A stretch of 64,000 bases of DNA from Euryarchaeota archaeon UBA438. GTDB taxonomy: Archaea > Thermoplasmatota > Poseidoniia > Poseidoniales > Thalassarchaeaceae. Both the position numbers and the translations under genes were made by a program. Below are positions 14,783-35,980 of the stretch, one piece after another. The DNA is taken from positions 16,810 to 80,809 of the forward strand of contig DAQP01000043.1 of the NCBI GenBank assembly GCA_002504435.1, read 5' to 3'. The notes under the pieces were generated by a model. It ran no database searches, was not told the origin of the DNA, and saw only the letters and a list, made by a program, of their open reading frames with translations. Numbering within the stretch: position 1 is the first letter of the stretch; each line of letters opens with the position of its first letter.

Positions 14783-16978
14783 ATGGGGCTCACCATGTTC
14801 GAAGAGGATTCTCGGCTCTCCGATTCAACAAGAATGAGGGGCGCTGCCCACATAATTTCCATTTCAATAGTAATACTCCTATTGACTTCAGTGAATCCAA
14901 GCCAGGCCTCTGATTTCAAGAGCAGTTGGGAAGTAGTAGAAAGCGGGACTTCTGAGGATCTCCTTACTGCTACTGAAATTGAAGGCGTAATTTGGGCATT
15001 CGGAACAGGGGGTGCGATGCTACACAGTGATGACAATGGAATTACATGGGCTGCCTACGATTCTCCCACTACAAGTGGCATTCTAAACTCGGACTCGGGT
15101 TTTGGGTCCTTGCTGGTTTCGGGAGAAAATGGACTTATGATGCTCAGGAAGAGCGGCGAAGAGCTTTGGACGGACATCCCCCTTCCCGAAGGATCCATTG
15201 TGAATGGAATCTCATTGACCGGGAGTGAAACCGCCGTTGCCGTGGGAGCCCATGGAACAATATGGAATCTTGAGGGGGGGACGTGGGCGGAAACAAACCT
15301 GTCCATAGAAAGTGATCTACTGGGTGTTTCGTTCCTCGATGAGAATCTAGGAATTGTGGTTGGCTCAGATGGGACCATCCTATTTTCCGATGATGGGGGA
15401 GAAAGTTGGGAGTATCGTGAGGCACCCGAAGGAGCGGGTGATGCTGAAATCGTCTCGGTGGAGTTCTACAGCCCCACTAGGATTTACGCCATTACGAATG
15501 ATGGGAGAATTCTAATCTCAATGAGTAACGTAGTGACGGGGACTGATGTAGGGTACATTTGGACACTCGTAGAATTCGAGAGGCACTATCCCGCAGGATC
15601 GAACGAGTATGTCCTTGGTCCGGAGACACTTGACGTCATGCTGACTTCGATTGAGGTAGTAACAACGTCGAAGTTTCTGATGACGGGTGAAGGCGGCTAC
15701 ATCTCAATGAGCATCAATGGTGGGACAATTGTTTCTCAGCAGATTAACCCACTTGGAAACAATAGTGACTTCAACGACATTGTAATGCTGACTGGATTCA
15801 ATGGCGTTGCAGTTGGCGACGGGGGCAAGATACTGTGGACCGAGAATGCTGGTGCAGACGACCAATTAGGATTCGTCGTACCGGAATATGGAAACTTCGG
15901 AGTCTTTGTTGATGAGACTAAGGCAATGTTCCTATCAGGATTCATCGCGACACTGAAAATAGTCGCATTCGGAATTATCCTGGGATTCCTCCTAGGAGTC
16001 ACCCTTGCAATGTGCAAAACATCCCCGACATCACTTAGGTACGTTGTAGAACGTTACGAAGCTAAGTATGTCAGATTGGTTGGGATTCCACTTCTGGCGG
16101 GCGGACTGTACCTATTTTATTCGGCCATACCAGGGGCTAGTAATCTGGGGCTGCAGGGAATTGAGTATGTTTTCCTTCCAGTTGGCGCACCTGTTTCTTT
16201 CGCCAAGATACTTCTGGGAATTGCGCTATTGTTCCTAGGTACACTATTCCTGAGTAATGATGGAAATTTCTCGAAAGTACGGGTTGGACCATTCGCCCTA
16301 AATCCTTGGAGGGTCAGACCGTTGAACGCAATAGCAACCGTTTACACGGACTTCTTCCGTAACACTCCGTTAATTGTCCAGTTCCTATTCATCCATTTCG
16401 GCCTTAGGCTGGGAGCCCTTATCCAGGAACCCGGATTGGAAATTTTTAGCTTCGATAATCTGGAAAATAATCATAACTTCCTGACGGACATTATTGCCAC
16501 ATACGACCATTCTGAAGGCAATTATGGGACGCTGATAGGTGGAGTACTCTACGACTCAGCATTCATCAGTGCCATATGCGCACTAGGATTCAATTCTGGT
16601 GCCTACCAATGCGAAACCATCAGAGGGGCGATTCAGGCAATACCTTCGGCCCAGATGGAAGCAGGAAGGAGCATTGGCCTAACATATTTGCAAACTATGC
16701 GACGAGTCATCATGCCTCAGGCGATTCGGATCTGCATCCCTCCGATGGGAAATGAGATGGTGAATCTGGTATTGAACTCGTCCCTTGCCATGATAATTGG
16801 ATATGCAGAGCTTACTAGGCAGGGCAAGTTGATCGTTGCGAGTACGTTCCAGTATGCATATGCTTGGGGGATGGTTCTGATATCCTACTTCGTGGTCACA
16901 TGGACCCTTGCCCTAATACTAAGGTGGCTAGAGGAAAAAACTAGGATCCCGGGACTAGGGATTACAGGAGGTGAATGA
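14783..16978 (+). CDS. Fusion protein: N-terminal BNR/Ycf48-like beta-propeller ectodomain (about 370 aa) plus polar-amino-acid ABC transporter permease (HisM/GlnP family)
   Basis: N-terminal TM/signal (AHIISISIVILLLTSV). Repeated BNR-type S-x-D-x-G-x-[ST]-W motifs (SDDNGITW, SDDGGESW, DGGKILWT) and 'GT/GS...G' blade strands. The C-terminal half has permease TM helices and the EAA-loop region (IQAIPSAQMEAGRSIGLTYLQTMRRVIMPQAIRICIPPMGNEMVNLVLNSSLAMIIGYAELTRQG). Confidence 0.75.
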   Translation: MGLTMFEEDSRLSDSTRMRGAAHIISISIVILLLTSVNPSQASDFKSSWEVVESGTSEDLLTATEIEGVIWAFGTGGAMLHSDDNGITWAAYDSPTTSGILNSDSGFGSLLVSGENGLMMLRKSGEELWTDIPLPEGSIVNGISLTGSETAVAVGAHGTIWNLEGGTWAETNLSIESDLLGVSFLDENLGIVVGSDGTILFSDDGGESWEYREAPEGAGDAEIVSVEFYSPTRIYAITNDGRILISMSNVVTGTDVGYIWTLVEFERHYPAGSNEYVLGPETLDVMLTSIEVVTTSKFLMTGEGGYISMSINGGTIVSQQINPLGNNSDFNDIVMLTGFNGVAVGDGGKILWTENAGADDQLGFVVPEYGNFGVFVDETKAMFLSGFIATLKIVAFGIILGFLLGVTLAMCKTSPTSLRYVVERYEAKYVRLVGIPLLAGGLYLFYSAIPGASNLGLQGIEYVFLPVGAPVSFAKILLGIALLFLGTLFLSNDGNFSKVRVGPFALNPWRVRPLNAIATVYTDFFRNTPLIVQFLFIHFGLRLGALIQEPGLEIFSFDNLENNHNFLTDIIATYDHSEGNYGTLIGGVLYDSAFISAICALGFNSGAYQCETIRGAIQAIPSAQMEAGRSIGLTYLQTMRRVIMPQAIRICIPPMGNEMVNLVLNSSLAMIIGYAELTRQGKLIVASTFQYAYAWGMVLISYFVVTWTLALILRWLEEKTRIPGLGITGGE

Positions 16979-17746
16979 ATGCCAGAAAAGGTACTAGACG
17001 TGGAAGATCTGCATATGATTTATGCGGGTGGCGTTCATGCTGTCAAGGGCATATCATTTGAAGTAAAACAGGGAGAGTCTGTTGCCATAATTGGATCATC
17101 CGGAAGTGGTAAGTCGACTGTCCTAAGGTGCATAAATCGACTGATAGAACCTACTGACGGCAAGATTTTCTTGAAGGAGGAGCAGGTTAACACCCCTCAC
17201 ACCGATGTAAATGACTTGCGATCCAGGATAGGGATGGTTTTCCAGTCATTCGAGCTATTTGCGCACCTTAGGGTCCTTGACAATATTACATTGGGCCTGA
17301 GACATGTCAAAGGTATGGGCAAGATGGAAGCAGAGGAAGCAGCAATGTCAGTTCTGGAAAGAGTCGATATGCTCGACAGGATTGATGCATACCCGGGTAA
17401 CCTTTCCGGCGGGCAGAAGCAGCGTGTTGCTATTGCCAGGGCCCTTGCCATGAAGCCGGAGGTTCTGCTTTTCGATGAGCCGACCAGCGCCCTTGATCCA
17501 GAACTCATAGGTTCGGTTTTGGAGACCATCCGTGGACTTGCTGACGAAGGAATGACAATGGTCGTAGTGACTCACGAGATTGGCTTTGCCAGGGATGTTG
17601 CTGATCGAATTATCTACATGGACCAGGGAGTTGTGGCAGAAGAGGGGCCTTCCTCCATCATCAACAACCCTCGGACTGAGAGGCTCAAGAAGTTCCTCTC
17701 ATCCCTTCACGAAGATGAGGTCGTGGAGCAAAATGATGTCGATTAA
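16979..17746 (+). CDS. Polar amino acid ABC transporter ATP-binding protein (GlnQ/HisP-like)
   Basis: Walker A GSSGSGKST, Q-loop, ABC signature LSGGQKQRVAIARALAM, Walker B LLFDEPTSALD, H-loop VTHEIGFA. The start codon abuts the permease stop. Confidence 0.9.
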   Translation: MPEKVLDVEDLHMIYAGGVHAVKGISFEVKQGESVAIIGSSGSGKSTVLRCINRLIEPTDGKIFLKEEQVNTPHTDVNDLRSRIGMVFQSFELFAHLRVLDNITLGLRHVKGMGKMEAEEAAMSVLERVDMLDRIDAYPGNLSGGQKQRVAIARALAMKPEVLLFDEPTSALDPELIGSVLETIRGLADEGMTMVVVTHEIGFARDVADRIIYMDQGVVAEEGPSSIINNPRTERLKKFLSSLHEDEVVEQNDVD

Positions 17747-21289: not shown

Positions 21290-23311
21290 ATGACCACTTC
21301 CGATACCCCGGATCTGGGAGTTTACCATGCTCATGAGAAGATGAGAGACTCCCAAATCGAGATGATCAGGGACGGAATAGACTCCCTGCAATCGGGGGGA
21401 GCCCTGCTGGCTGCAGCGCCCACTGGAATAGGCAAGACTGCGGCGTCCTTGGCTTCCGCATTGCATGTTGCAAATGATAGGTCCCAAGAGGGTTTGAAGC
21501 CGAAGATTGTGTTCATGACAGGTAGGCAATCGCAACATAGGATCGTTGTTGACACTGTCAAAATGATCAACTCGAGGCTTCCAACGGGAGTTTCGAGAGT
21601 CAAATTAGTTGATATCATTGGAAGGGAGGGGATGTGTGATGTTATCGACAAATCGACCGGCAAATGCAACTGTGAAAAAGAGTCGACGGAGGAGGGCAGA
21701 CAGAGAAAAAGAAACAGGATGAAGGACATTATCCTGTCAGAGCCTCGGCATGTCGAGTGGGGAATAAAGTATGGCAAGCAAGAAAGGGTGTGCTCATGGG
21801 CAGCCGCTAGGGCAGCTGCCAGAGATACAGATGTGTTGGTTTGTGACTATAATCATGTTTTCATCGAGGAAGTCAGAGAAAGCTCACTTCCGGCCATGGG
21901 AATAAATCTAAATGAGTCTATATTGATAGTTGATGAAGCCCATAACCTACCAGATCGAATCAGGAATGGATTAGAAAGAAGGATTACTGATCAGGTATTC
22001 AGAAGGGCGCTGAGTGATGTCCAGGAATACAAGGGAAACCTGGAGAAAGTTGCCTTGCAGTTAGATACTGGTGAAGCATATGGTTTCGGAGACGCTGTAA
22101 AGCTGGAGAAGCAGATTAAGGCCCTCAGAGATGACACTGTACTGAGAAAATGGTTCGACAGCAAGACCGTGGAAAACGAGGAGTCTGACTGGGATGACCT
22201 GCGGATCGAGACAAATGATTTCCTAGATGCCATAGGCAACGCCATAGTCGGGCTTGATGATTCGACGAGCGACCAAATCTCAATTATCCGAGAAATGATT
22301 GGAAACTTGATGAGGGTGAAAATAGATGATGACGACTCACTGGAAGAAGAAGAGCAGAACGATTGCATCAGACTTGCGGAAATGCTGGACGTTTGCATCA
22401 AATACAGAAATAGCGATGCCCTTGCATTAGTGTTCGACAACATATTGGAAGAGCCCCGGATTTCGAGTCATTTGCTGGATCCGGGAGTTGTAGGTGGCCC
22501 CATATTCGAAGAGTGTGCTGGCTCAATTCTGATGTCTGGAACACTATTTCCCCCAATTATGTATTGCGAAATCCTAGGGATAAACGAGGAAGGATATAGG
22601 GGCAAGGAGTACAATTCAGGATTCCCCCCTGAAAATAGACATGTGCTAATTGCCAGCGATGTAACGAGCAAGTTCTCGGAGAGAGAGTCGAGTTTCGGGC
22701 CCATTAGCCAACACATAACTTCCGTTCTGGAAAAAACTCCAGGTAACGTTGCAATTTTCGCCCCCAGCTATTCGATGATGGAACGAATTGCTTCAGAGAC
22801 GGGGTACGTCTTCGGGAGGCATCGCCTGAAGGAGGAAAGAGGCATGTCCAAGCGCTCAGTTGATGGAATGGTCAATAGGCTACACGAACTTAGGTCGATG
22901 GGTAAGAATTCTGTGATTTTCGGAGTATTGAGCGGTAAACTGTCAGAAGGGATAGATTACTCTGACAACATCCTTGATGCCGTGGTCTGCATTGGCCTCC
23001 CATTACCCCCGCCCAGTGCCAAGCAGGACGCACTGTTTGGATACTACACTAGCAGGTTCGGGAGATCAAGGGCATGGAAGTATGCAAGTCTGCAGCCGGC
23101 TGTAAACAGCGTCCTACAGGCTCTCGGGAGACCCATAAGAAAGGCGGAAGATAGGGCTATAGTGGTACTTCTCGAGAAGAGGCTCCTGGAAGGCAGGAGC
23201 AGGGATTGTATGCCTGGGTCAATGGACTCATTAAGGACATCTAGTCCATCTAGAACAGGCAAGCATGTTGAGCGATTCTTCCGGATACCTAAATCAATGG
23301 GTTCATCTTAG
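21290..23311 (+). CDS. XPD/Rad3-family (DEAD_2) superfamily-2 DNA helicase with Fe-S cluster domain
   Basis: Q-motif/Walker A AAPTGIGKTAASL. A 4-Cys cluster (CDVIDKSTGKCNCEKE ... C ... C) lies between motifs I and II. DEAH box reads VDEAHNL. The C-terminal HD2 carries QALGRPIR (motif VI). An acidic insertion reads DDDDSLEEEEQND. Confidence 0.8.
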   Translation: MTTSDTPDLGVYHAHEKMRDSQIEMIRDGIDSLQSGGALLAAAPTGIGKTAASLASALHVANDRSQEGLKPKIVFMTGRQSQHRIVVDTVKMINSRLPTGVSRVKLVDIIGREGMCDVIDKSTGKCNCEKESTEEGRQRKRNRMKDIILSEPRHVEWGIKYGKQERVCSWAAARAAARDTDVLVCDYNHVFIEEVRESSLPAMGINLNESILIVDEAHNLPDRIRNGLERRITDQVFRRALSDVQEYKGNLEKVALQLDTGEAYGFGDAVKLEKQIKALRDDTVLRKWFDSKTVENEESDWDDLRIETNDFLDAIGNAIVGLDDSTSDQISIIREMIGNLMRVKIDDDDSLEEEEQNDCIRLAEMLDVCIKYRNSDALALVFDNILEEPRISSHLLDPGVVGGPIFEECAGSILMSGTLFPPIMYCEILGINEEGYRGKEYNSGFPPENRHVLIASDVTSKFSERESSFGPISQHITSVLEKTPGNVAIFAPSYSMMERIASETGYVFGRHRLKEERGMSKRSVDGMVNRLHELRSMGKNSVIFGVLSGKLSEGIDYSDNILDAVVCIGLPLPPPSAKQDALFGYYTSRFGRSRAWKYASLQPAVNSVLQALGRPIRKAEDRAIVVLLEKRLLEGRSRDCMPGSMDSLRTSSPSRTGKHVERFFRIPKSMGSS

Positions 23312-23336
23312 TCGGGCCATTGGGGGCAACGATAGC

Positions 23337-23816
23337 ATGACGTGGAGGAGAGTTGTAATTGCCGACTCAGACGACGGTGCTGTAACTGAAAATGAATTCC
23401 GAGGAGTCGGCATGGGCCTCGATGTTACCGCCTCGGAAGCGCATTCACAGTTTCTCTCTGACCTACCGCACATGTCTGAGGTTTCGAAGTCCCACGAGGA
23501 ATTCATGGGACAGGTTGGAGACATACCTGAGTCCACCAGGATGGTGAACAACGACGTCACAACTATTGGCGAGATGGTTGCTGATCTAGGAGGTTCAATA
23601 GAGGGCAGCTACATGGAGATTCCAATGCCTTCGGCGAATAGAAGGGGGGTCGTCCTCGAAGTCATGGAGGGCGAGTCAGGCACTATAGCTCGAATTATCG
23701 CGCCCAGTGGTTTTGGAGGAGTTTTGAGGACGTTCAGACTTCCTACTGGGTCATTCATATCGGATGCATCATGGAACGGACACACTTTGGGGTTGTCCCT
23801 TGAAGATCATTCCTGA
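23337..23816 (+). CDS. Hypothetical small protein, possibly with an Hsp20/alpha-crystallin-like beta-sandwich
   Basis: The C-terminal GVVLEVMEGESGTIARIIAPSGFGGVLRTFRLPTGSFISDASWNGHTLGLSLE resembles the ACD strands ('F.R.F.LP..') only weakly. The start is placed at MTWRR; the track ORF starts at 23265 inside the helicase. Confidence 0.35.
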   Translation: MTWRRVVIADSDDGAVTENEFRGVGMGLDVTASEAHSQFLSDLPHMSEVSKSHEEFMGQVGDIPESTRMVNNDVTTIGEMVADLGGSIEGSYMEIPMPSANRRGVVLEVMEGESGTIARIIAPSGFGGVLRTFRLPTGSFISDASWNGHTLGLSLEDHS

Positions 23817-26800
23817 GGGACTATTGAGGCCTCCCTAGATGGAACTTCCTCGAGCTGGTCTATCTCCTGGAGAACTGAGCTCAGTGCCATCTGGGCACTC
23901 TCCCTATGGGGCTCGCCGAGAACGTGGCTTGAGTATCTGGCCTCCTCGAAAATTCTGTCGAGAGACAACAATGCCTGCTCGCTTATTGGGAGTGCGTTTC
24001 TTATTGCTAGCTCGAACTCTCTGACTGTCTCGAAGTCTCTCCTCAGGAAACCTCTGCTCATCAGTATCTGGCAGAGTCCCTCATAGCAGTTGAATATAGC
24101 CTCCCTGACCTCATCCCCTGCTGCCAAGAGCTCTGCTGTGTAGCTGAACACCCCTGCTAGCTCATCGATAGCAGCCTGTTTCCTCCTCCTTAGCACAATT
24201 ACGCCAGCCGCGGCTAGTCCGATTATCACAAGGATGGCTAGTGCGGTCATTGCAGGGCCCACCAATGATGCCCCCTGCTCCGGCTGATATTCTACATCGA
24301 CAACGGCGAACTGTGAGAGTCGGGCAGCGTCAATGGGGTCGATAATATCGGAATCGGAACTGAACTCTACTGACAAGTCCCCCCAGAAGTCCCTGTCCCA
24401 TAGGGGATGGTTCTCATGGAATGACTCGAACTGATATGTGAAGATGCCATTCTGATCTGTGACCCCTACCACAGTGAAATGTGTGCTACTCTCGTTGACT
24501 AGCCTAGCGGTAATCGAAACTCCTTCTATGGCCTCGGCCCTGTCCGTGGCAGTGACATTCACCTTTCCTGACATGGAGCTTTGGCCTATTTCTAGGAACA
24601 AAGAGTCTGGGAGGAACTCAAAGTTCACTGGGACCTTGATTATCACCTCGAACTCAATCTCGCCCCCATTCAGGAACCTTGAGGAGTCGGGATCCACGAC
24701 TATCGACATGCTGGCCACACCAGGAGGCATTGTTGAAATTGCATTCGACTCAACCAGGAACTGCCCTGTTGTCTCATCCCATGTTATCTTCGTATTCGGC
24801 CTCAGAGATTCATCCCAGTATAGCGAGAGGTCCATCTCCTCCATGGTGTTGCCCTCCCCTCCGATCTCAATTATCCTGCCAAGAACCCTAATAGGTCTAT
24901 TTCCATCGCTTCTGACGACCTCGTCCTCAAGGAATAGGATCTCTATCTGAATGTCGGCTCTGGCATACACGGTTGCATTGATCGAGTTGGAAAGGTACAG
25001 CTGTTCGCCAGCGAAAACCAATGAGACGTCGTGTGAACCCCTTGAAATCAGGTAACCCAGTTCATGACTAATGCTGAATGTTCCATCTATGCTTGTAGTA
25101 ATGGTGGAAACTTCTTCGCCATCTAGAAGGAAGGAAAGCACCCTCCCCTCCAAACCCGGATTGCCGGTAGAGTCGGCATCGAATAGCCTACCACTTAGGT
25201 TCCATGCACCACCCCTAGTAACAACATTGTTCTCGACTTGCAGTGTCATTCCGGTGTGATATGCTATTGTCAGGTTTGCCTCTACGGATCCTTCGCGGTG
25301 ATATCCCTGATTCGGAGCTATTACCGTGAGTGTGTGCTGACCCACGTCTAGGAATTCGGACACTACCCAAGAATGGGACCAGGACCCGTCTTCATCCGTC
25401 GTAGTAGTGCCTATCAGAATTCCATCAATAAAGATCTGGAGCGAGTGGTTTCCAAGCCACCCATCCGGAAGGTTATCCTTGACGGAGCCCCTGAGTTGAA
25501 GTACGTCTCCAACAGCGACCGGAACTGGTTGTTCAACACTCACCTCGACTGGACCGAAAACAGTGAAAATAGTGCTAGAGTTAGAGGCGATTACGAACTC
25601 CTCTCCACCAAATTCTATCCTAACGTTCCTTGGCCCGAGAGGCATGTCTGGGGGTACAGGGAAGAATAAGCTAAACGTGCCATTGTCAGACACAGATAGG
25701 GATGTTAGGAATTGGTCGTTCATGTAGACATCTAGATCTCGTCCGGGAAGTACCCTTCCAGCGCCATCAGTCAGCATTCCTTCTATGAGTAGCAGCTCGT
25801 TCCTGTCGACTTCCCCAGGAGGTGTCGTAAGAACGACCTGGGATGTCTGGGTCGCGTTGAATTCCTGTGTTATTGAGGATGGGAGATAGTATTCCGGATT
25901 CAGGGAGTCACCCTGGCCCATCGGGTCGACCCATGTGAAACCGCCAAGGAAGTCGACGGTGAAGGTGTGGTCGCCATAGTCTGTATCAAGCGGTAAATCG
26001 TAAGTGATGCTCCAAATCCCAGTAGAGGAGTTCGAAATTGAAGTGTACAAAGGACCTACGTCGATTCCGTCTATGGAAAGATGGACGACACCTCCCTTTT
26101 CTTCGCCGTCCTCGATCAGGGGTGCACCATGCTCGTCTAGCAGGGTTCCAGTGAACGTGACTGACTCACCTGCGATTGCGGAGCCCGTAATTGAGGTCAC
26201 ATCGAGAACCGTTGGGGCGAGTATCACCACTCTTGTCCATGTCTCATCGCCCAGTAGACCGGTGGTCCCATTGAAGCCAGCAAATGTGGCGGTAATTGTC
26301 ATCGGGCCGGGAGCCCTATTGGAATCGGTCGGGATTACAGTAGTGACAATGCCGTCCTCGTTCGTAAGGCCGGACCATGCTGGTGCCCCATCTATGGAAA
26401 TATCGACCTGGGCTCCTGAGACGAACTGTCCGGAGTTGTCAATCAATGACATGTTGAGTGTGATGTTGTCCCCTCTGACAGTTCTCTCATCAGGGTCCAA
26501 ATCCGTTGGGGAAATTATGGAAAGCATTGAGAAACCTCTGCTGTCAAAGATTCCATCCTCGGAGCTGGCGCCATAGTAGTTGACGGACGGCGTGTATGAG
26601 GCGGTGATATTGTGCGTACCACGTGGGAAGGAAAGATCCAGGAAGATTCTGGCAGACCATGTGCCATTGGCATCTACGGTTCCACCAGTGACTGAGAACG
26701 AGTTAGTGTCCCCATCGATGGCGAAGTTTAGAGTTGGATTCAGGGCATTTCCTGATCTGTCAACTATTCCACTTCCATTACTCGAAGTCAAAGTTCCACT

Positions 26801-29800
26801 AATGTCGAGGAACTCCCCTGCAGCTGGGTTGGAAGTAATTGGGTCGAATGTAATGTTGGTTGGCGACCTGACTGTGATTGTGTTGATTATCGTGGACGAT
26901 GGATGGAGTGTGTCTGAACCATTTGAACCATTGAACATCAGAACTATCGGAATCAAACCGAGAGGGTGCGAATGAGGGACTGAGAATGTGAAGTTGACGA
27001 TACCTTGTCCATTTGTCGGTTGTTCGGGAGTTAGCCACGTATCGTGGAACAATGCGGAAACCGGCATGTCGGAAAGTTGCCTGTCCCCATCGCTAGATTC
27101 TACCAGCTTTGCTCCGAATGTTATGGATGTCCCCCTGTCTACTATTGTATTGAGGAGGGGGTTCCTTTCAGTGAACTGGGTGACGCCTCGAACCAGGATT
27201 GTTTCATTCCCAGAACCGGTAAGGTAGAACGGGGTACTGCCGTTTTCAACGCTTACTATGACAGTCTTGAGGCCGTTAGTCACGCCATCCCCCAGCGGAT
27301 CAGTTGGCACCATTATCGAGAACGATCCGTTAGCTGCGGTGACATGTCCTGTGACCAGAGTCTCACTGGGGTCGTTCAGGAAAAAGACCTCCAGCGTCAT
27401 GGGACCCGATACTGAGCGATTCTGGTCCACTCCATCTAGGACCTGCCCCTGCAGTTGGAAAAACTGCCCGGCGGTGACTTCGGGCAATGGAGCATTGTCA
27501 ATTCTGATGCTACTCGCGACCTGCACGGTGAGGTTCACTGTGCTCTCATTCCCTATCCACCTGCCTGCATTGGGTGTGGTCAGACTATCAGTTAGGTCAT
27601 CCGGTGCGTGTAGGCGGACATCATAGTACCCGGGCGGAGCGTCAGCAGGAATGGTCGGAGTGAACCTTGCGACGCCATCTGAACCCGTGACTGTGGAGTT
27701 GAGTACCTGCTGCAGGGGCCCTCCCCAATCGAAGTAAATGTCGACGGTAGTGTTCTGCAGCCTGTCATTACTCTCCACATCGGTGACTGTGGCATTCGTC
27801 ACCAATGTCTGGCCTGCAATCACGATCGACTGCAATGGCTCTGCCTCCACTACGTACTCGGTCTGTACGCCTGCTTGGAGCACCACTGCACCGGAAACAA
27901 GGTAGTAGGCACCACCCGTGGGGGGGTTCTTCTCGAAATCAAGGATCAGTCTGAGGTCGTAGACACCAGCACCGACACCGCTAGGCATCTGGAATGTAAT
28001 GTTGTACTCGCCGGTAGTGTTGTCTATCCACTGCTCCCCCAGTCTGTAGGTTACTGGTGGTGCTTCCAGGCCATCGGGAGTAGGTGGTTGGTCGGATGGC
28101 ACCTCCATATTCACAATGATGGAAGAGTTGTTTCCTAGAATCGTGCTGTTCAGATTGATGTCCCTGGCGAAACCAGAAATCCAAGATGATTGCCCTCTGG
28201 GAGTCCATTCCGAACCCAGTGTGAATGAGACGTCAGCCCTACCTTGGACTCTGACGGTATCTAACACGCTGTTGGGAAGAAGCCATGTGGAACCGCTATA
28301 ATTCAGCTGCCACGGGTAGTCCCCCGCCTCCACATCTATAGTGGGCCTCCATGTTACCATCACGCGCGGGAGCTCTGGGTCTGACTGATTCCATACCAAC
28401 TCGCCGTTGAAGTCCAATGAGTAGTTCCCAACGAAGCTCGCAACGGAGTTTCCAGTATGGTCTGACAATGTCACTTCTACCTCGGAGTCTGACCCCACGG
28501 GAGCTGGATTCAGAATATAGCTGAAATTTACGTAACTCTTTACTCCGTGCTCATCGATTACCACAGACTCGTCTTTCGCGAAGAGGCCGTCCGCCTCAAA
28601 CTGGTAACGAATCTCTACCAGACCAGCGGGAATGGGGACCTCTGATGCAGAGAAGGACCAATTGACAGCAAATTGCCCGAGGGCCCCCGTCCAATCGGAG
28701 TCGTTAAGATACCATGAATTGAGAGTTGTAAAGGGGCCGTTGGCTGCGGATCTTCGCATCTGTAGTGTAAGGGTGCCATTGAGTGCCTCTGGGATGGTCG
28801 ACCTACTCAGAACGGTGCCGTTGAGGTATATTGGCTGGTCGACCTCAAGGATGGTGTTGTTAGCCCCATGTCCCTCCAGGGTTACGGTAAGGTTGGGTGC
28901 TGGTGTTAGGTTTAGGTTGAATCCGACTGACTGGGGGCGTAAGTGATAGAGGGGGGTGCTTGCATTGTTGAGATCCTCCTCGTGCCAGCCTAGGAAATTC
29001 AAGGTTGCAGCTATCAGCCCCTCCTGTTCAGATTCGTCTATTGGGACGGAGAATTCGTAATAGCCGCCAGCCCCGACGCTGGAGATTAGGCTAACTGGGC
29101 CATCAGCTGTGGTTGTGTAGTTGAGAACCACCTGTAGGCTATCTAGTTGAGTAATGTCATTGTAAGGCTCACTTGAGAGAGAGATCTCGCCTGTTACCGT
29201 AGTGTTCACTCCAATTCCTATCTTTGGCTCGTCCACCGGCTCTGGTTCAGTAATTGACATGTCTACATCGTCAGTGATGTTCATCCTCCAGGGGAAGGTA
29301 ATCCCCTGTGAACCGACGTACCCATTCTCATAAGTTCGAAGAACCAGGGCGCCATATCCTGGATTAATGACCTCTTGGGGCTGCCCTGTTATGTTGAAGG
29401 AGCCATTCTCGTCCGTAATTGCTGTGCCAACGAAATGCTCCTCTAATGCAGCGGAACCGGGGACGTTCTCCGTCTGATTGGATCTTACCAAGTACATGTC
29501 AATGGTGATGTTCGCCACAGAGGTCTGATTTTCAGTGAACCTCAGTATTCCATCCAGGGAAATATTGCCCGATGAAAGGTCCCTGTCGAACCAGATTGGA
29601 CCCCAGCTCTCGTCCACTACCTCGACTGTAGACAGGGATGGACATGCCTCGAAGGGGATCCAGCCGAGATCTGCGTTACCCAGATTGGAGTTTGTCTGGA
29701 GGTGCACCTCTACCCAGGTTGTGAAGTCCTTACCGTAGACCTCGAAAGACGTACCAGTCCACTTCCCTCCAGAGAAACCCGTGACTTTACGGGCAGGGAT

Positions 29801-32770
29801 TCCCGCGGACCTTAGCATCACGGCGAAAAGAGTGCTGAACTGGTCACAGTCACCCTCAAACGAGTTGTTCAGAATCCAATAGGACAGGTCATCCTCGTCA
29901 TCGAGAACCCCGACTTCGGTCCCGTTATGGTTTCTCAGGAAAGAGGTAGTCGAGTTACCATTAATGATGAAGTCCTGGATTGCGGACACCCTGTCCCAAG
30001 CGGAGAACGCCCCTGACTCATTGATTACTGTCATTGTTATTGAGTTGACAAAGCTGGCGGCATTGCCCTTTGCCAGATATGAGCTTGGGAGGTCCGTCGC
30101 ATAACTGCTATTGGAGAACTCTGTTGTATTTTCCCTAATCGCCTGGGTGATCAGAACTTGCGGGGCGGTAACGAAGAGCGTGTCTATGGTTGCACCGTCC
30201 ACTATTGCATCCCTGGTGAAATTCGAGAAGTTGAGGCCAGCATTAGCATCGGTCCATCCAGTATAGTTGACAGCGTTATGGGGTACGATAATTTCCTCGC
30301 CAGGGAAGATCAGTGCCCCTGACTCAAGTGATATCTCCCAGCCAAGGACCTCAGATCCATCCCAGAACTGCTGGTCGGCAACACCCTGTGTGGTCGAGAA
30401 ACCCGGGAACATCTGCGTATTCCCAACGAGACTAGTGTTGACCCCCCAAGAAATCCCGGTATAGAAGTCATAGGTATGCCACCTCCAGTAATGCGTAATA
30501 TTGGGGTCCACCCCCATTGAGGTGTTCATCGCCTCGAAGAACATCATGTTGGGGTCTATATCATCCGTCGGATCCCACGGATTTCCATCGGCGTTCAGAC
30601 AATTAATGTCCCAAAACTCTGATGTGCACTCCTGTCCATCGGGAACTCCCCCTCCATCGGTATCCGGATCCCTCCAGTCAGTGCCCGTAGAGTTCTCAAT
30701 GGTGTCTGGTATCCCATCTCCATCGGTATCTACTGGATTTAGGTCATCGTTAGGATTATTCTGAGGGTTCGTTCCATCCAGATACTCCTGGAAATCAGTA
30801 ACGCCCCCGTTGTCAGTGTCGGTTACATTCCACAGTGTGAAGTAGGTATCAGTAGTGCCGTTTCCACCCAAGTCGCCGAATGCAATCAAGCAAACTGTTG
30901 TATTCTCAAAGTAGTTGTTTAGACCGTCCCCATCTGAATCCAGAAGGTTATCACATGGATTGCTAGGGTCGGTTAGATTGAGTATCTCATCTAGGTCATT
31001 CACCCCGTCCCCATCTGTGTCGGACATGTTCCAATCGGAAAGGAATCCAAAACTCCCAGTAGATTCCTCCCAATCGGCTAGCCCATCCCCATCAGTGTCG
31101 AAATAGTCATCGTCGCATATTGGATCGTTGGAGAAACCTAGGGATTGATCCCAGCACCAAGAGAAGTTGACGAATGTAACAGATGTGGCATCAGGTGGTT
31201 TGTCCGTGTCTATGCCCCTCAATGCATCGCCATTGATGGAAGTGAACCTAAATCCTGTGAGGCTGCCGTTTGTTGATGACACGTAGTATCCCATGGGTTC
31301 GCCATTCTGCCTCCAATCCTCGGGTGTCTGATCGAGTGCGGATGTATCATTTAACGTGAGAATCATGTTTGTGGCATCGAAGTCGACTATTGACAGATTC
31401 AGTGTTTGAAGCGAAGTGCAGGGGTCTGTTCCGTGAGACGGGTCAAGCTCCGAGCCGTCACTAATCCCTCCGCCGTCAGTATCTGCAACATTCCAGAGGG
31501 TACATGTCATGTTTTCCTCCCAGTTGGGTATGCCGTCGTCATCGAAGTCACCGGAATCCTCAATCCTTGTTGGATCCGTCTCATTTTCATCCACAATGCC
31601 GTTCCCGTTGAGGTCCTCCTCTCCGTCGTCAAACTGGTCATCATCCGTATTGTTGTCCCTTGGGTCGCTTGCCAGAGGGGGGTCCCCGTACTGGCCATTT
31701 ACCTCCACACCATCACTAATTCCGTCACCATCGGTGTCAGGGGATGTTGGGTCGGTCAGCAGAACGAGTGCTTCGTAAGAGTCGTTGAGTCCGTCCCCAT
31801 CAGTGTCGTTATTCTGGGGGTCTGTGGAAGTAATGCCGTCGACCTCTGCCGTGAAGATCAGGCACCCACCGGGTCCAAGTTGCAGTACTGGGTTGCAGGG
31901 GGATTCAGTAGCAGTCATGGCTAGTGGGCCTGGTCTGAAGTACTGTGTGGGCGGGGTAGTGGTTCCATTTCGGGTCCCCCAAGCTGGGTTAATGAACTCC
32001 TTCAGGTTCACTAGCCCGTCTCCATCAGGGTCCCCCGATGCCCCATCTTGATTGGTGCGTGAAGTGGGGTCTAGCCCATTTGCAACTTCCCAACCGTCGG
32101 GCATGCCGTCGCCATCGGTATCCCAGCCATTTGGATCCTCATCGATGAGGCCGTCACCGTCATCGTCATCACTTGTGCAGTTCGCATCACCGTCACCGTC
32201 ACCGTCGAAATTGTCGACCATCCCATCCTTGTCATCATCAAATGTGTTGAAGCAAATGTTTCCCCACGGATCCTCATCAGCTCCGTCGGAACCTAGCCCC
32301 TGTATGAGTTGCATGGCGCTTTCCTCGTCCCAGTTACTCACGGGTACAGTGCCATTCCACCAAACGCCGTTGTCCAGCTCATTTGGGGTGTTTGGGTCAT
32401 CCCAGTTCGCAGGTATGCCAAACATCAACTCATTCAGGTTTGAGAGTGAGTCTCCGTCTGGATCGCCCGTGGATCCGTTATCGCCTGTAGATGAGAGTGG
32501 ATTCAGGCCGTACTGCCATTCCCACCCGTCAGGAAGACCGTCATTGTCCGTGTCCCAGTCCTGGGGCTGGGTATTGATGTAGAACTCGAGACCGTAAGAT
32601 AGGCCATCTCCGTCCTGATCGGTTGAAGCCAGCGCCTCCCAAGCAGCGAACTCCAATGCCGAGTACGAAGAAAGGAGCATCAGGGCCGAGAAAATTATGG
32701 CTGACCTGCTCTTCCTGAGGCCGTCCTTGTCCAACCCTGTAGATTGACTAAATGAGTCCATGCTACGCAA
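23807..32770 (-). CDS. Giant (2987 aa) TgpA-like surface protein. N-terminal TM/signal, about 15 thrombospondin type-3 Ca-binding repeats, a transglutaminase-like cysteine-protease core, more than 15 predicted Ig-like/beta-sandwich domains, a TM helix, and a DUF4129-like cytoplasmic tail.
   Basis: TSP3 repeats DxDxDGxxDxxE at residues about 50-715 (DTDNDGLPDGWE, DTDGDGMPDGWE, DTDGDGISDGVE, DTDGDGLADWEE, VDTDGDGIPDTIE ...). The TGase core starts at about residue 970: GDCDQFSTLFAVMLRSAGIPARKVTGF ... TTWVEVHL ... GWIPFEA (Cys-His-acidic). The C-terminal AMTALAILVIIGLAAAGVIVLRRRKQ helix is followed by FLRRDFETVREFE...ARYSSH, which resembles the tail of bacterial TgpA-type transglutaminases. Confidence 0.85.
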   Translation of the reverse strand: MRSMDSFSQSTGLDKDGLRKSRSAIIFSALMLLSSYSALEFAAWEALASTDQDGDGLSYGLEFYINTQPQDWDTDNDGLPDGWEWQYGLNPLSSTGDNGSTGDPDGDSLSNLNELMFGIPANWDDPNTPNELDNGVWWNGTVPVSNWDEESAMQLIQGLGSDGADEDPWGNICFNTFDDDKDGMVDNFDGDGDGDANCTSDDDDGDGLIDEDPNGWDTDGDGMPDGWEVANGLDPTSRTNQDGASGDPDGDGLVNLKEFINPAWGTRNGTTTPPTQYFRPGPLAMTATESPCNPVLQLGPGGCLIFTAEVDGITSTDPQNNDTDGDGLNDSYEALVLLTDPTSPDTDGDGISDGVEVNGQYGDPPLASDPRDNNTDDDQFDDGEEDLNGNGIVDENETDPTRIEDSGDFDDDGIPNWEENMTCTLWNVADTDGGGISDGSELDPSHGTDPCTSLQTLNLSIVDFDATNMILTLNDTSALDQTPEDWRQNGEPMGYYVSSTNGSLTGFRFTSINGDALRGIDTDKPPDATSVTFVNFSWCWDQSLGFSNDPICDDDYFDTDGDGLADWEESTGSFGFLSDWNMSDTDGDGVNDLDEILNLTDPSNPCDNLLDSDGDGLNNYFENTTVCLIAFGDLGGNGTTDTYFTLWNVTDTDNGGVTDFQEYLDGTNPQNNPNDDLNPVDTDGDGIPDTIENSTGTDWRDPDTDGGGVPDGQECTSEFWDINCLNADGNPWDPTDDIDPNMMFFEAMNTSMGVDPNITHYWRWHTYDFYTGISWGVNTSLVGNTQMFPGFSTTQGVADQQFWDGSEVLGWEISLESGALIFPGEEIIVPHNAVNYTGWTDANAGLNFSNFTRDAIVDGATIDTLFVTAPQVLITQAIRENTTEFSNSSYATDLPSSYLAKGNAASFVNSITMTVINESGAFSAWDRVSAIQDFIINGNSTTSFLRNHNGTEVGVLDDEDDLSYWILNNSFEGDCDQFSTLFAVMLRSAGIPARKVTGFSGGKWTGTSFEVYGKDFTTWVEVHLQTNSNLGNADLGWIPFEACPSLSTVEVVDESWGPIWFDRDLSSGNISLDGILRFTENQTSVANITIDMYLVRSNQTENVPGSAALEEHFVGTAITDENGSFNITGQPQEVINPGYGALVLRTYENGYVGSQGITFPWRMNITDDVDMSITEPEPVDEPKIGIGVNTTVTGEISLSSEPYNDITQLDSLQVVLNYTTTADGPVSLISSVGAGGYYEFSVPIDESEQEGLIAATLNFLGWHEEDLNNASTPLYHLRPQSVGFNLNLTPAPNLTVTLEGHGANNTILEVDQPIYLNGTVLSRSTIPEALNGTLTLQMRRSAANGPFTTLNSWYLNDSDWTGALGQFAVNWSFSASEVPIPAGLVEIRYQFEADGLFAKDESVVIDEHGVKSYVNFSYILNPAPVGSDSEVEVTLSDHTGNSVASFVGNYSLDFNGELVWNQSDPELPRVMVTWRPTIDVEAGDYPWQLNYSGSTWLLPNSVLDTVRVQGRADVSFTLGSEWTPRGQSSWISGFARDINLNSTILGNNSSIIVNMEVPSDQPPTPDGLEAPPVTYRLGEQWIDNTTGEYNITFQMPSGVGAGVYDLRLILDFEKNPPTGGAYYLVSGAVVLQAGVQTEYVVEAEPLQSIVIAGQTLVTNATVTDVESNDRLQNTTVDIYFDWGGPLQQVLNSTVTGSDGVARFTPTIPADAPPGYYDVRLHAPDDLTDSLTTPNAGRWIGNESTVNLTVQVASSIRIDNAPLPEVTAGQFFQLQGQVLDGVDQNRSVSGPMTLEVFFLNDPSETLVTGHVTAANGSFSIMVPTDPLGDGVTNGLKTVIVSVENGSTPFYLTGSGNETILVRGVTQFTERNPLLNTIVDRGTSITFGAKLVESSDGDRQLSDMPVSALFHDTWLTPEQPTNGQGIVNFTFSVPHSHPLGLIPIVLMFNGSNGSDTLHPSSTIINTITVRSPTNITFDPITSNPAAGEFLDISGTLTSSNGSGIVDRSGNALNPTLNFAIDGDTNSFSVTGGTVDANGTWSARIFLDLSFPRGTHNITASYTPSVNYYGASSEDGIFDSRGFSMLSIISPTDLDPDERTVRGDNITLNMSLIDNSGQFVSGAQVDISIDGAPAWSGLTNEDGIVTTVIPTDSNRAPGPMTITATFAGFNGTTGLLGDETWTRVVILAPTVLDVTSITGSAIAGESVTFTGTLLDEHGAPLIEDGEEKGGVVHLSIDGIDVGPLYTSISNSSTGIWSITYDLPLDTDYGDHTFTVDFLGGFTWVDPMGQGDSLNPEYYLPSSITQEFNATQTSQVVLTTPPGEVDRNELLLIEGMLTDGAGRVLPGRDLDVYMNDQFLTSLSVSDNGTFSLFFPVPPDMPLGPRNVRIEFGGEEFVIASNSSTIFTVFGPVEVSVEQPVPVAVGDVLQLRGSVKDNLPDGWLGNHSLQIFIDGILIGTTTTDEDGSWSHSWVVSEFLDVGQHTLTVIAPNQGYHREGSVEANLTIAYHTGMTLQVENNVVTRGGAWNLSGRLFDADSTGNPGLEGRVLSFLLDGEEVSTITTSIDGTFSISHELGYLISRGSHDVSLVFAGEQLYLSNSINATVYARADIQIEILFLEDEVVRSDGNRPIRVLGRIIEIGGEGNTMEEMDLSLYWDESLRPNTKITWDETTGQFLVESNAISTMPPGVASMSIVVDPDSSRFLNGGEIEFEVIIKVPVNFEFLPDSLFLEIGQSSMSGKVNVTATDRAEAIEGVSITARLVNESSTHFTVVGVTDQNGIFTYQFESFHENHPLWDRDFWGDLSVEFSSDSDIIDPIDAARLSQFAVVDVEYQPEQGASLVGPAMTALAILVIIGLAAAGVIVLRRRKQAAIDELAGVFSYTAELLAAGDEVREAIFNCYEGLCQILMSRGFLRRDFETVREFELAIRNALPISEQALLSLDRIFEEARYSSHVLGEPHRESAQMALSSVLQEIDQLEEVPSREASIVPQE

Positions 32771-32843: not shown

Positions 32844-35777
32844 TCAAACCAGTTCGATGTCGTCATCCTCGTATACATCGTCCTCTTCCTCTTCTATCGA
32901 CACAACTGGAGCGGGTAAATCATCGTCCTCTTCATCTTCCAAATCATCATCTGAATCACTGGAAATTGCATCTAAATATGCCATATGTGCCTTCCACCTT
33001 CTCCTGTTCATAGCGCCTTGGATCCCTGCGATGAGTAGCATTGCTGCAACTATTCCCACGATGTAAGTTGAAAGTCGGGGGTGTGTAATCTCGTTTACAA
33101 GTCTGTCAATTAGTGACGAAATTCCCACTCTCATCACGACGGTCTTCTCAGCCGTAGCATCATCGGGCCAGCTCTGCTGCGTGTCGAATGGGGTTGCCGA
33201 AACTAGGACATCTGCGGTCTCGCCATTGTTTGCAGAGTCGGGTACGTTAACGTCCAATACGAATGTGACTTCTTCGAATGCACCAAGCACTATCAGAACC
33301 GACCCCGACGGGCCGTCGATGTCAACGGACCAACCGGTCCCGTCAACTTCAGCCTCCAAGAGTACGGTGAGAGGACTGTTGCCCAAGTTCTTGACCTTCA
33401 TCTGGATAGGGTATGACTCCCCCGGAACTAGAAGTCGATTGGGCGTTACTTGTACGATTTCCAAGTTGGGGTCATCGGGATCAATCTCAAACACCATTGG
33501 CAAGTCAAAGTACTTGGCATCGTCATCAGTGGTATCTTCGACTATTCTGAGGTAAACTGTGTGATTGCCAAACTCTACCTGATTTGTCAAAGTGATGGTC
33601 ACGAATACCTCGGTTTCATCGCCCGGGGCAAGAGAGACCCTAGGAACGGCATTACCCGACGAGTCCTCAATTCTGAATTGCCACTGACCGTACGCGGCGT
33701 TTCTATCGGTGTTATCGTCCAATGAAGCTGGATTCTGAATCCTCCACCATGTGGCGGATTCGCCGGATGTCATCGTATTGGTGATCTTTGCCCTCAGAGA
33801 TACTTCTGCGTTTCCTGGCCCGGGGTCGCACAGAGAAACCCTGATGTGGCCAAGTGGTGAACCATCGCAGTCATAGGAAACCTCGGCCCTTATTCCAAAT
33901 GTGCGTTGGATAGTGAATAGTACCGTGGACCTCAGAGAGGCGTTTCCAGAACTTACCACCTCTATCTCAACTGGGCCGATGTCGGGGTCTTCTCTGTCGG
34001 CCGAGGGCTTGATCATCAGCCTCAGCGTTTGAGTGTCGTGCCTATCCAAGAGAGCTGTATGGAAAGTGCCGTCACCTTCGTCCTCCAGAATTCTCTGACC
34101 AGTGTCATTATCGTACACGTGAATGATTGACTTGGATCTTTGTAGTACGTCGATCCTGAATGTGTCAGCATCGAAACCGGTGTTGAAAATCTCAAGAAGG
34201 AATGGGGTGAATTGGTCATAGTCGACATACCTAGGTATGGTTGAATCAATGTCATCAGGGCGTGAAGAGTTTGCTATTGGGATGTCATGGTCCTCTGACC
34301 ATATGGATACTTGTGGAGGTTGGTAAACGTCGATCTTCTCCAAGTCAATCTGAAGAGTGTCCTGGTGAACGACGGTAAGTACGCCGTCGACCTCTGCTTC
34401 TGCAACAGCTCTGATATCTATGGAGCCTGGTGCACCTGTAAGATCCTCAGGTGCGGTGAGAGTAAGTATTGGATTCAGAATATCTCCTCCAGCATTGAGT
34501 GTATATCCGCCTGGTGAGTCGAATTCTAGCAACCATGAGCTTGGGAAATTTGTTAGGACCTCTAATTCCACGTCCATCGACTTCGTAGAGTCTCCCCTGT
34601 GAACTAGTTGGAGTGGAACGGGGGTTGTTTGTCCGGGAGCTATGTATTCTGTAGTTCGGTCCAGCCTATGGTTCAATGCAACTCCCCACTGCTCCATTGT
34701 TACAGGTTCATGCTCGATTATGACGCTATTACCTTGGATGTCAGAAACCTCGAGTTCGACAGAATATTCCCCGGATGGGATGCCGCTAGGGTATGACCAG
34801 AGGTACTCTCCAAAGATGCCTTGGCTTGTGTCCTCTATTTCCTCGTCGTCCTCATCGATTACGTGGTCTATCCGGTACATTCCGTCGGGATCCCGCATCA
34901 ATAGCCTTACCGAGTCTACGTCATACCTGCCAAAACTGCTCTTGACATCGAAGGAGAACTGCATAACCCTCTCAGACAGGATGTCATTCGGAAACCATTC
35001 CAACTCTGGCCCCTCTGCGAGTTCTGCACCCTCCCTCTGTAGGAGAACAAGGCTGTTGGATATTGCGTTTGCCTCAATCTCTAGGGTGCTGAATCTGTCG
35101 TCGCCGTCTATCTCATTCCATGCCACCTCGGCCTCGCAACTAGAGCCGAATGGGCTTCCACTACTGTCACAACCAGACATATCGGCATCGACAATTAGTT
35201 CGAGGCGCTCGTCCTTGTCTATAGTGAATCTCTGGTCGTTCCCTAGGTCGATTTCAAATGTCTCATGGTCAAAACTGCAGCTCTGAGTAAGTCCTGGATT
35301 GCATGCATCAGTGCTCCAAGAAACCGAACCGACTTGACTACCTGATGACTTGAGTGTGATTGTCCACTCCACGGAGGAAGTGTCAGGGCCTGTCGCCCTC
35401 ATGAATAGCCCCAGTGGCAAGTAGTAAGATCCGGAGCCTGAGCCATGATTGGGGCGTCCGGCTACATCCAAAGAAGACAGCATAGGACTAGTTCGGAACT
35501 CTATGCTGCTGTCTAGGGCGCTCATCGACTCTTGGCCCCCTGATTCGGGAACCTGTGTTGTGATGTAACCATCACCGCCTGCAGAAGAATTCTGGGAAGC
35601 GAAATACATTGTATAGAGATTCAACTGGACATCTGAGCCTGCTTCCATCCTGGCTTCTTCTGGAAGCTCGTATTGGTGGTTGGAAAGCATGCCAAAGGGC
35701 ATCAACATCAGCAGGGAAAGTGCCAGGGCCAGCCTGAAACGGCGGGACGCGCTATTCGCTATGCTGCTCGCATACAC
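32844..35777 (-). CDS. Large (977 aa) secreted, membrane-anchored surface protein with Ig-like/CARDB-like domains and a poly-acidic cytoplasmic tail
   Basis: Signal peptide MYASSIANSASRRFRLALALSLLMLMPFGM. Long beta-rich ectodomain. C-terminal helix YIVGIVAAMLLIAGIQGAM with RRRWK stop-transfer, then DDDLEDEEDDDLP...EEEEDDVYEDDDIELV. It is co-directional with the giant TGase gene, 73 nt upstream of it. Confidence 0.7.
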   Translation of the reverse strand: MYASSIANSASRRFRLALALSLLMLMPFGMLSNHQYELPEEARMEAGSDVQLNLYTMYFASQNSSAGGDGYITTQVPESGGQESMSALDSSIEFRTSPMLSSLDVAGRPNHGSGSGSYYLPLGLFMRATGPDTSSVEWTITLKSSGSQVGSVSWSTDACNPGLTQSCSFDHETFEIDLGNDQRFTIDKDERLELIVDADMSGCDSSGSPFGSSCEAEVAWNEIDGDDRFSTLEIEANAISNSLVLLQREGAELAEGPELEWFPNDILSERVMQFSFDVKSSFGRYDVDSVRLLMRDPDGMYRIDHVIDEDDEEIEDTSQGIFGEYLWSYPSGIPSGEYSVELEVSDIQGNSVIIEHEPVTMEQWGVALNHRLDRTTEYIAPGQTTPVPLQLVHRGDSTKSMDVELEVLTNFPSSWLLEFDSPGGYTLNAGGDILNPILTLTAPEDLTGAPGSIDIRAVAEAEVDGVLTVVHQDTLQIDLEKIDVYQPPQVSIWSEDHDIPIANSSRPDDIDSTIPRYVDYDQFTPFLLEIFNTGFDADTFRIDVLQRSKSIIHVYDNDTGQRILEDEGDGTFHTALLDRHDTQTLRLMIKPSADREDPDIGPVEIEVVSSGNASLRSTVLFTIQRTFGIRAEVSYDCDGSPLGHIRVSLCDPGPGNAEVSLRAKITNTMTSGESATWWRIQNPASLDDNTDRNAAYGQWQFRIEDSSGNAVPRVSLAPGDETEVFVTITLTNQVEFGNHTVYLRIVEDTTDDDAKYFDLPMVFEIDPDDPNLEIVQVTPNRLLVPGESYPIQMKVKNLGNSPLTVLLEAEVDGTGWSVDIDGPSGSVLIVLGAFEEVTFVLDVNVPDSANNGETADVLVSATPFDTQQSWPDDATAEKTVVMRVGISSLIDRLVNEITHPRLSTYIVGIVAAMLLIAGIQGAMNRRRWKAHMAYLDAISSDSDDDLEDEEDDDLPAPVVSIEEEEDDVYEDDDIELV

Positions 35778-35894: not shown

Positions 35895-35980
35895 GCAGAG
35901 GTACCCGAGTTGGTCAAAGGGGCCGGACTTAAGCTCCGGTGCAAAGTGCTTCGCAGGTTCGAATCCTGCCCTCTGCACCA
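35895..35980 (+). tRNA. tRNA-Leu (anticodon UAA) with genomically encoded CCA
   Basis: Acceptor GCAGAGG/CCTCTGC. Anticodon stem CCGGA/TCCGG with loop CTTAAGC (anticodon TAA). A 13-nt variable arm (class II). T-arm GCAGG-TTCGAAT-CCTGC. Discriminator A plus CCA. Confidence 0.85.

Follow-up and report, generated by a model that had tools for sequence, protein, structure and literature searches.

The stretch of archaeal DNA analysed here (64 kb, hereafter the window) carries housekeeping genes for eRF1, class-I LysRS, DTD2, Rpb7, XPD helicase and NOG1, together with one gene of exceptional length on the minus strand. Positions 23807..32770 (-) form a single 8964-nt reading frame, uninterrupted, of 2987 codons from a TTG, plus stop. 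The closest orthologue used for comparison (P0001; 91% identical) has the N-terminus MSSFSQST and a length of 2984 aa, and the ATG at 32761, residue 4 of the frame, is for that reason probably the start in place of the listed TTG; the coding sequence would then be 23807..32761 (-), specifying 2984 aa. Among 5.8 billion proteins searched, more than 120 clusters of full-length orthologues were found, 2937-3017 aa long and 41-91% identical, drawn from ENA, JGI, NCBI, Logan and Tara assemblies and alike in length and domain order. Those with names are called 'transglutaminase domain-containing protein' and assigned to Candidatus Thalassarchaeaceae, Poseidoniaceae or Thermoplasmatota; both Marine Group II families sampled possess them. 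In an alignment with 22 diverse orthologues the gap fraction is no more than 3% in any region. The gene belongs to the core genome of Marine Group II archaea, in which it is single-copy, and the window comes from an archaeon of this group (Poseidoniales). The original prediction, made from the letters of the window, had described one gene of about 9 kb with a particular order of domains and had proposed a search for orthologues in Poseidoniales and other Thermoplasmatota; the unbroken frame, the order of Pfam matches and the full-length clusters bear out the first and answer the second.

The surroundings of the gene are equally constant. We compared five loci: that of the window, two from Poseidoniaceae, one from Thalassarchaeaceae and one encoding a more distant, 3088-aa relative. 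In all five the order is lipoyl synthase, SDR, a protein of 958-981 aa whose Pfam matches are faint or lacking altogether, the giant, a small convergent ORF and XPD helicase, and in all five, hence in both families, the orientation is partner -> giant <- small ORF <- XPD helicase. The upstream partner gene of the window (32844..35777 (-), 977 aa) shares the giant's strand, a gap of 73 nt separating its end from the ORF of the giant, and the two are presumably co-transcribed. Its counterparts at the four other loci are 28-48% identical to it. An AF2 model of the partner (pLDDT 77) has, after an N-terminus resembling a signal, about eight beta-sandwich domains, a transmembrane (TM) helix and an acidic tail, and on this model the partner is a type-I membrane protein with an acidic cytoplasmic tail; the fold matches are to generic tandem beta-sandwiches only (macroglobulin and ciliary ASH-type arrays), with TM-scores of 0.10-0.17.

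The giant begins with what looks like a cleavable Sec-type signal peptide, or else a signal anchor (32627..32761 (-)), as judged from hydropathy and from the N-termini of orthologues. The segment reads MDSF...RKSRS-AIIFSALMLLSS...EALA; a conserved AxA precedes STDQDGDG, so that cleavage would be expected at EALA|STDQDGDG. Its hydrophobic part is weaker than the C-terminal TM helix and is the only one at the N-terminus. Immediately beyond it comes an acidic array of TSP3-type repeats (residues 49-725; 30596..32626 (-)), with 155 D/E against 12 K/R, recognized by Pfam and NCBIfam repeat matches and by its motif, charge and Cys counts. TSP3_bac (PF18884) matches five stretches of it at E 2.1e-9, with 37.5 bits against a cut-off of 25, and the tandem DxDxDGxxDxxE motifs characteristic of TSP3 repeat proteins are present; the HMM search suggested for this family thus gave a match above cut-off. 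The number of repeats originally proposed, about 15, agrees with the 15 DxDxDG motifs counted between residues 51 and 706, but these are not consecutive as had been supposed, non-repeat inserts lying between them. We infer that the array binds many Ca2+ ions. Comparable DxDxDGxxDxxE arrays (TSP3_bac) are found in bacterial surface proteins of adhesion or cohesion, among them CglD and MtsD of Myxococcus. The NCBIfam models for these two match the array of the giant through the repeats alone and score far below their cut-offs (79.7 against 400 and 53.1 against 800), on which grounds we rejected membership of either family: the repeats are what is shared, and the remaining architecture is unrelated.

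Between the TSP3-type array and the membrane lie a transglutaminase-fold module, discussed below, and a long stalk of Ig-like beta-sandwich domains (residues 1066-2830; 24281..29575 (-)). An iterated HMM located 15 such domains between residues 1068 and 2691 at a spacing of about 115 aa, which makes at least 15 for the stalk in total, and Pfam recognizes Big_3_5 (residues 1981-2071, E 2.2e-20) and, more weakly, the other Ig-type families MG2, Big_7 and Big_1; the long beta-sandwich stalk originally predicted is therefore real. It is followed by a strongly hydrophobic TM helix (residues 2839-2860; 24191..24256 (-)), next to which RRRK marks the cytoplasmic side, and by a cytoplasmic tail of DUF4129 type (residues 2861-2987; 23810..24190 (-)), identified by Pfam, a tail HMM and conservation. 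In the single sequence the match of residues 2895-2963 to DUF4129 (PF13559), at 24.4 bits, falls 0.4 short of the curated cut-off of 24.8; PF13559 is, however, precomputed in many orthologues, and an HMM built from 120 orthologue tails matches the extreme C-termini of proteins with TgpA architecture (P0236, for example, at 6.5e-6) as well as those of many giant relatives. The C-terminal helix and DUF4129-like tail that had been proposed are supported on all three counts.

Sequons are distributed as this topology would lead one to expect. All 86 N-x-S/T sequons of the giant are extracellular, at a density of about three per 100 aa in the stalk and zero in the tail; across 119 orthologues they average 85, which is 2.5 times the shuffle expectation, with essentially none in the tail. 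An excess that is limited to the part outside the cell is in keeping with an archaeal surface protein carrying N-glycans and a cytoplasmic tail, and the giant is presumably N-glycosylated. Indirect signs of a possible envelope glycoprotein are found together in it: a signal peptide, a C-terminal TM anchor, an excess of extracellular sequons and synteny within the core genome.

The module (residues 726-1065; 29576..30595 (-)) comprises two subdomains, an N-terminal beta subdomain and a core with the transglutaminase/papain fold. Transglut_core (PF01841) matches residues 963-1042 (29645..29884 (-)) at E 6.7e-13, with 49.3 bits against a cut-off of 23, so that the HMM check proposed for this family is clearly positive, and the motifs GDCDQFS, TTWVEVHL and GWIPFEA on which the original prediction was based all lie where it placed them. 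Residues 725-1075 were folded by AF2 from a 19-sequence alignment, to yield a model with a pLDDT of 83.7 and a pTM of 0.83. By far its best match among solved structures is the periplasmic domain of Pseudomonas aeruginosa TgpA (Foldseek E 4.3e-14 over 314 columns), and it has the features of the transglutaminase-like superfamily: a profile match, a papain-like fold and a Cys at a helix N-terminus. In a profile search of 1.84 billion representatives, canonical proteins of about 730 aa aligned to module profile positions 22-315, and one protein found in this way, P0236, has the full TgpA_N-Transglut_core-DUF4129 architecture by Pfam. TgpA_N/DUF3488 (PF11992), to which the canonical relatives do match, was not found in the giant at E <= 0.1 (Pfam). 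The giant has the other marks of the TgpA family, namely an extracytoplasmic two-subdomain module like that of PDB 6g49 and, beyond a TM helix, a cytoplasmic DUF4129 domain at the C-terminus. The structural match, the canonical profile matches and the tail HMM matches together make the label 'TgpA-like' correct for fold and topology.

The active site is another matter. We extracted the relevant columns by HMM from the giant and 120 orthologues (121 sequences). The nucleophile position, Cys975 in GDCDQFS (29846..29848 (-)), is Cys in 121 of 121 and sits at the N-terminus of model helix 251-264. The canonical His position is occupied by Thr1017 (29720..29722 (-)): in the sequence alignment the TgpA His of 'DAHAWVEY' stands opposite this Thr in 'DFTTWVEV', and the column is T in 68 sequences, S in 18, A in 18, D in 8, G in 4, N in 4 and Q in 1, never His, whereas it is His in 221 of 256 related cores (50%-identity representatives). 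The His that had been taken as catalytic, that of 'EVHL', is residue 1023, six residues past 1017 on the same strand, and is itself variable (H94 R17 Q9 N1). The canonical Asp position, Glu1041 (29648..29650 (-)), is not conserved in the family (E64 D32 Q12 N8 K2 H2 Y1); in the 256 related cores this column is D in 71 and E in 68, so Glu at the third position, which had been thought unusual, is ordinary. Nor is any conserved His to be found among the 24 near-invariant residues of the module in the 121 sequences. A Cys-His-Asp(Glu) triad is accordingly absent from them, in that Cys975 is present, residue 1017 is never His and residue 1041 varies, and the Cys-His-Glu triad of the original prediction does not hold. 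Architecture, fold and loss of the triad we regard as established with high confidence.

With the canonical His never present, an acid column that varies and no conserved His in the module, catalysis becomes the less likely reading; to judge by its sequence the module is probably non-catalytic, and the annotation 'transglutaminase domain-containing protein' very probably does not denote an enzyme here. Invariance of the nucleophile Cys975 would also be compatible with residual or non-canonical thiol chemistry.

A second Cys distinguishes this active site. Cys1043 (29642..29644 (-)), at the position of the Thr in 'DPT', is Cys in all 121 sequences and is specific to the family: of the 256 related cores, 70 have Thr in this column and only 14 have Cys. 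Eleven of these 14 Cys1043 cores lack the His, belong to the giant's clade, and carry Cys975 or are fragments; the exceptions to this covariation are three, P0181, P0201 and P0218. Loss of the His and gain of Cys1043 are on this evidence coupled and define the family.

The two Cys also fall into a wider pattern. The extracellular part of the giant contains exactly 14 Cys, arranged as seven sequence-local pairs (residues 173/198, 292/303, 423/451, 539/552, 606/627, 715/724 and 975/1043), six of them in the TSP3-type array. In 120 sequences each of the 14 is fully or almost fully conserved, the members of the 715/724 pair being lost together in seven; of the 120, 109 have an even number of extracellular Cys. 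The stalk, about 1750 residues, has none in the giant and none in 75 of 119 orthologues. Even counts, local pairs and paired loss fit a protein whose extracellular Cys, the former nucleophile among them, are all disulfide-bonded. Animal transglutaminases conserve the 'DPT' Thr strictly; as Thr360 of TG2 it makes up, together with Trp241 and Trp332, the active-site tunnel around the nucleophile (PMC13073648), and Cys1043, as its equivalent, should adjoin Cys975. Conservation, pairing pattern and tunnel homology thus suggest that Cys975 and Cys1043 are probably a disulfide or redox pair.

Conservation along the protein, taken as mean identity to the 22 diverse orthologues, is highest in the cytoplasmic DUF4129 tail (0.70) and next highest in the TSP3-type array (0.64), and lower in the transglutaminase core (0.48), the core's N-terminal subdomain (0.38) and the stalk (0.35-0.48). 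That tail and array outrank the core is unlike what would be expected if catalysis carried the function.

How the giant stands to its relatives was examined among the 150 nearest 50%-identity clusters. Of these, 67 contain transglutaminase cores and are 1400 aa long or longer; 58 of the 67 have at least one core in which Cys and His are intact, and 23 have a match to the tail. The closest relatives outside the orthologue group are uncharacterised giant metagenome proteins combining Transglut_core, Ig and DUF4129 domains (for example P0138, 2590 aa, and P0202, 1897 aa). Proteins of this type share the giant's layout of core, Ig domains (Big, CarboxypepD_reg or MG types), TM helix and DUF4129 tail; they differ in usually having two to seven cores, in the absence of a TSP3 array (no DxDxDG in most) and in that some keep TgpA_N. 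The nearest relatives include many giants in which transglutaminase cores occur with Ig domains and DUF4129 tails, and the view that such elements are rarely seen together was overstated.

TgpA itself (PA2873; PDB 6g49/6g4h), with the Pfam architecture TgpA_N (PF11992) - Transglut_core (PF01841) - DUF4129 (PF13559), has the same topology, with the module outside, a TM helix and a cytoplasmic DUF4129 tail. It is 688 aa long, its N-terminal domain is multi-TM and its Cys-His-Asp triad is intact; the giant has a signal peptide instead of TgpA_N, some 680 aa of added TSP3 repeats, at least 15 Ig domains between module and TM helix, no catalytic His and an extra active-site Cys. The gene neighbours differ too. 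PA2875 and PA2874 we take to encode a MoxR-type ATPase and a DUF58 protein. Both genes are co-transcribed with tgpA (PMC3507681). The giant has no such neighbours, no AAA/MoxR or DUF58 domain being found in the ORFs scanned across the 64-kb window or within 10 kb on either side of four orthologous loci; its conserved neighbour is the 977-aa all-beta membrane protein. The missing MoxR and DUF58 neighbours remove a possible clue to function without supplying another.

Two further comparisons concern logic rather than descent. In protein 4.2 (band 4.2) of erythrocytes the nucleophile Cys is replaced by Ala. This cytoplasmic member of the animal transglutaminase family, devoid of the catalytic triad, serves as a scaffold of the membrane skeleton (PMC13073648); it has no TSP3, Ig-stalk or DUF4129 parts, and by analogy the giant resembles it in logic, not through ancestry within the family. 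As for long envelope fibres, the likeness is a conceptual one. Tetrabrachion of Staphylothermus marinus is an archaeal surface-layer glycoprotein with a long coiled-coil stalk and a C-terminal membrane anchor. Like it, the giant would be an archaeal envelope fibre of great and fixed length, glycosylated and anchored in the membrane; the stalk of the giant is made of Ig domains, not of coiled coil.

The reading that we favour, by a little better than an even chance, is that the giant is a non-catalytic, N-glycosylated envelope fibre or adhesin made with its 977-aa partner, the module having been repurposed; for an envelope or adhesion role as such, on the sequence evidence, we put the chances at about even. 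The protein would be exported by Sec, with its signal probably cleaved at the conserved AxA, and then held by the single C-terminal helix, so as to present, from outside in, the TSP3 array, the TgpA-type module, at least 15 Ig-like domains, the TM helix and the DUF4129 tail. The array, loaded with Ca2+ and stapled by six disulfides, would stand with the module at the distal end of the fibre, the Ig-like domains acting as a spacer of conserved length. The module, its His gone and its acid unconstrained, would most likely act as a locked binding or structural domain, for which protein 4.2 offers the parallel, the lock being the probable pairing of Cys975 with Cys1043, which stands where the active-site tunnel would be. 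Through its DUF4129 tail the giant would be tied to a conserved cytoplasmic partner, and giant and co-oriented all-beta partner would most likely form a structure of envelope or adhesion that is constitutive. Presence in both families, a length that does not vary and a place in the core genome speak for such a constitutive structure, of the envelope or for attachment, rather than for an adhesin that differs between strains. Widespread 'thrombospondin genes' have been described as adhesion genes in Marine Group II archaea (Rinke et al. 2018).

The original prediction suggested that the giant could be an active extracellular transglutaminase or cysteine protease displayed on a stalk, with a putative signalling tail in the cytoplasm; Cys975 would then be the nucleophile, His1023, or in some lineages His1015, a non-canonical base, and Glu1041 the acid. 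The TgpA fold is indeed kept overall, Cys975 is placed at its helix N-terminus just as in active enzymes, Glu is common at the third position among relatives that keep the His, and the periplasmic domain of TgpA has transglutaminase activity in vitro (PMC3507681). The invariance of Cys975 is what leaves this reading some weight. Against it, the canonical position has no His in any of the 121 sequences; His1023, displaced along the strand by six residues, gives way to R, Q or N in 27 sequences, and His1015 is present in only 26. The acid column accepts even Q, N, K and Y, the module as a whole offers no conserved His, and both the tail and the TSP3 array surpass the core in conservation. We consider cross-linking or protease activity outside the cell unlikely.

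A different use of the two Cys can be envisaged, in which the Cys975-Cys1043 bond is reversible and, by thiol-disulfide exchange at the distal end of the fibre, gates the binding of a ligand or captures partners through mixed disulfides. That both residues are invariant, that the pair is specific to the giant's clade and that Cys1043 occupies the tunnel position all speak for it, as does the regulation of animal TG2 by a redox-sensitive pair, Cys370/Cys371 (PMC13073648). An extracellular Cys pair would, however, be expected to remain oxidised in oxic seawater, and the remaining six pairs look purely structural; we hold this reading to be rather improbable. As for the gene being an assembly chimera or a decaying pseudogene, a reading that its size alone had suggested, a frameshifted chimera being what the original prediction had named as fatal to it, this is scarcely credible, since the frame is unbroken, more than 120 independent clusters of full-length orthologues agree in length and domain order, gene order is constant, gaps are few and conserved residues are spread along the whole length.

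To return to the non-catalytic envelope fibre or adhesin, a bolder extension of it can be stated: that giant and partner together make up the main scaffold of the Marine Group II envelope, with a fixed spacer of about 60 nm when fully extended, and that in addition the module has evolved a new, His-less, two-cysteine active site by which particles or partner cells would be captured covalently through thiols or bound under redox control. We regard this combination as a long shot; if it were true, the two-Cys thiol chemistry of the module would be new chemistry for the transglutaminase fold.

Public databases already contain the family of the giant under a generic name, a member from an HF-series fosmid being entered as 'Putative transglutaminase-like superfamily protein'. 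Our literature search found no paper linking Marine Group II archaea with transglutaminase and no description of the giant, the transcriptome and ecology papers on Marine Group II included; it likewise turned up no characterised archaeal member, as the original prediction had supposed. New in the present analysis are the single core from which the His is gone and in whose active site there is a second Cys, the replacement of the TgpA_N membrane domain by an N-terminal TSP3 array, the conserved all-beta partner, and membership of the core genome in an archaeal order that is very abundant and uncultured.

Among the planktonic archaea of the surface ocean, those of Marine Group II are described as the most abundant, and they have yet to be cultured (PMC6461757). 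In them, a length-invariant surface protein of 3000 residues accompanied by a conserved partner is, on sequence grounds, a strong candidate for a major component of the envelope or of attachment, and metaproteomics, cryo-ET and antibody labelling could be aimed at it directly. The invariant Cys pair in a His-less active site makes a clean, testable case of a repurposed papain-fold enzyme, and the very high conservation of the tail is a lead on the function of the DUF4129 domain.

Directly upstream of the giant, the TgpA-like surface protein gene with TSP3 repeats and Ig domains (23807..32770, minus strand), lies a gene for a 977-aa type-I membrane protein (32844..35777, minus strand), which has no name in databases. 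The N-terminus of this partner protein is signal-like, and the protein further has about 8 beta-sandwich domains, a TM helix and a tail rich in Asp and Glu; two Cys pairs are invariant in it, and its gene is kept beside the giant in all five loci compared, the window and four orthologous loci. A tRNA-Leu with anticodon TAA (35895..35980, plus strand), the sole tRNA in the 64,000-nt window, separates the partner gene from the SDR gene.

The mechanical ORF of the giant begins with a TTG and so takes in three extra codons (32762..32770, minus strand) ahead of an ATG, and it is the ATG that agrees with the orthologue starts; the protein is thus probably 2984 aa long, rather than the annotated 2987 aa. 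At its other end, a 183-aa ORF (23265..23816, plus strand) has a 10-nt overlap with the stop codon of the giant and a 47-nt overlap with the end of the XPD helicase gene. This ORF has no match in Pfam; the equivalent place in each of the four orthologous loci holds an ORF of 139-158 aa, and it is therefore probably a real gene of the helicase operon.

Elsewhere in the window, another predicted surface protein of very large size, 1894 aa (6449..12133, plus strand), has domains of the FG-GAP, CARDB and NPCBM_assoc families and matches EF-hand weakly. A fusion protein (14783..16978, plus strand) joins a BNR/Ycf48-like beta-propeller at its N-terminus to an ABC-transporter permease domain (BPD_transp_1); the gene for the transporter's ATPase follows (16979..17746), and a solute-binding protein gene on the opposite strand comes before the fusion gene. 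An M28 family peptidase (45829..47631, plus strand) has an N-terminal SAP domain, usually a DNA- or chromatin-binding motif, an odd pairing.

Two likewise giant relatives from outside the window, the representative proteins P0127 and P0157, recovered by profile search with the transglutaminase-like module, contain 4-7 transglutaminase-like cores per chain. Many of these cores have Cys and/or His substituted, the residues in place of Cys being K, M, P, A, S or D. It therefore seems that huge surface proteins widely reuse non-catalytic transglutaminase folds as building blocks.
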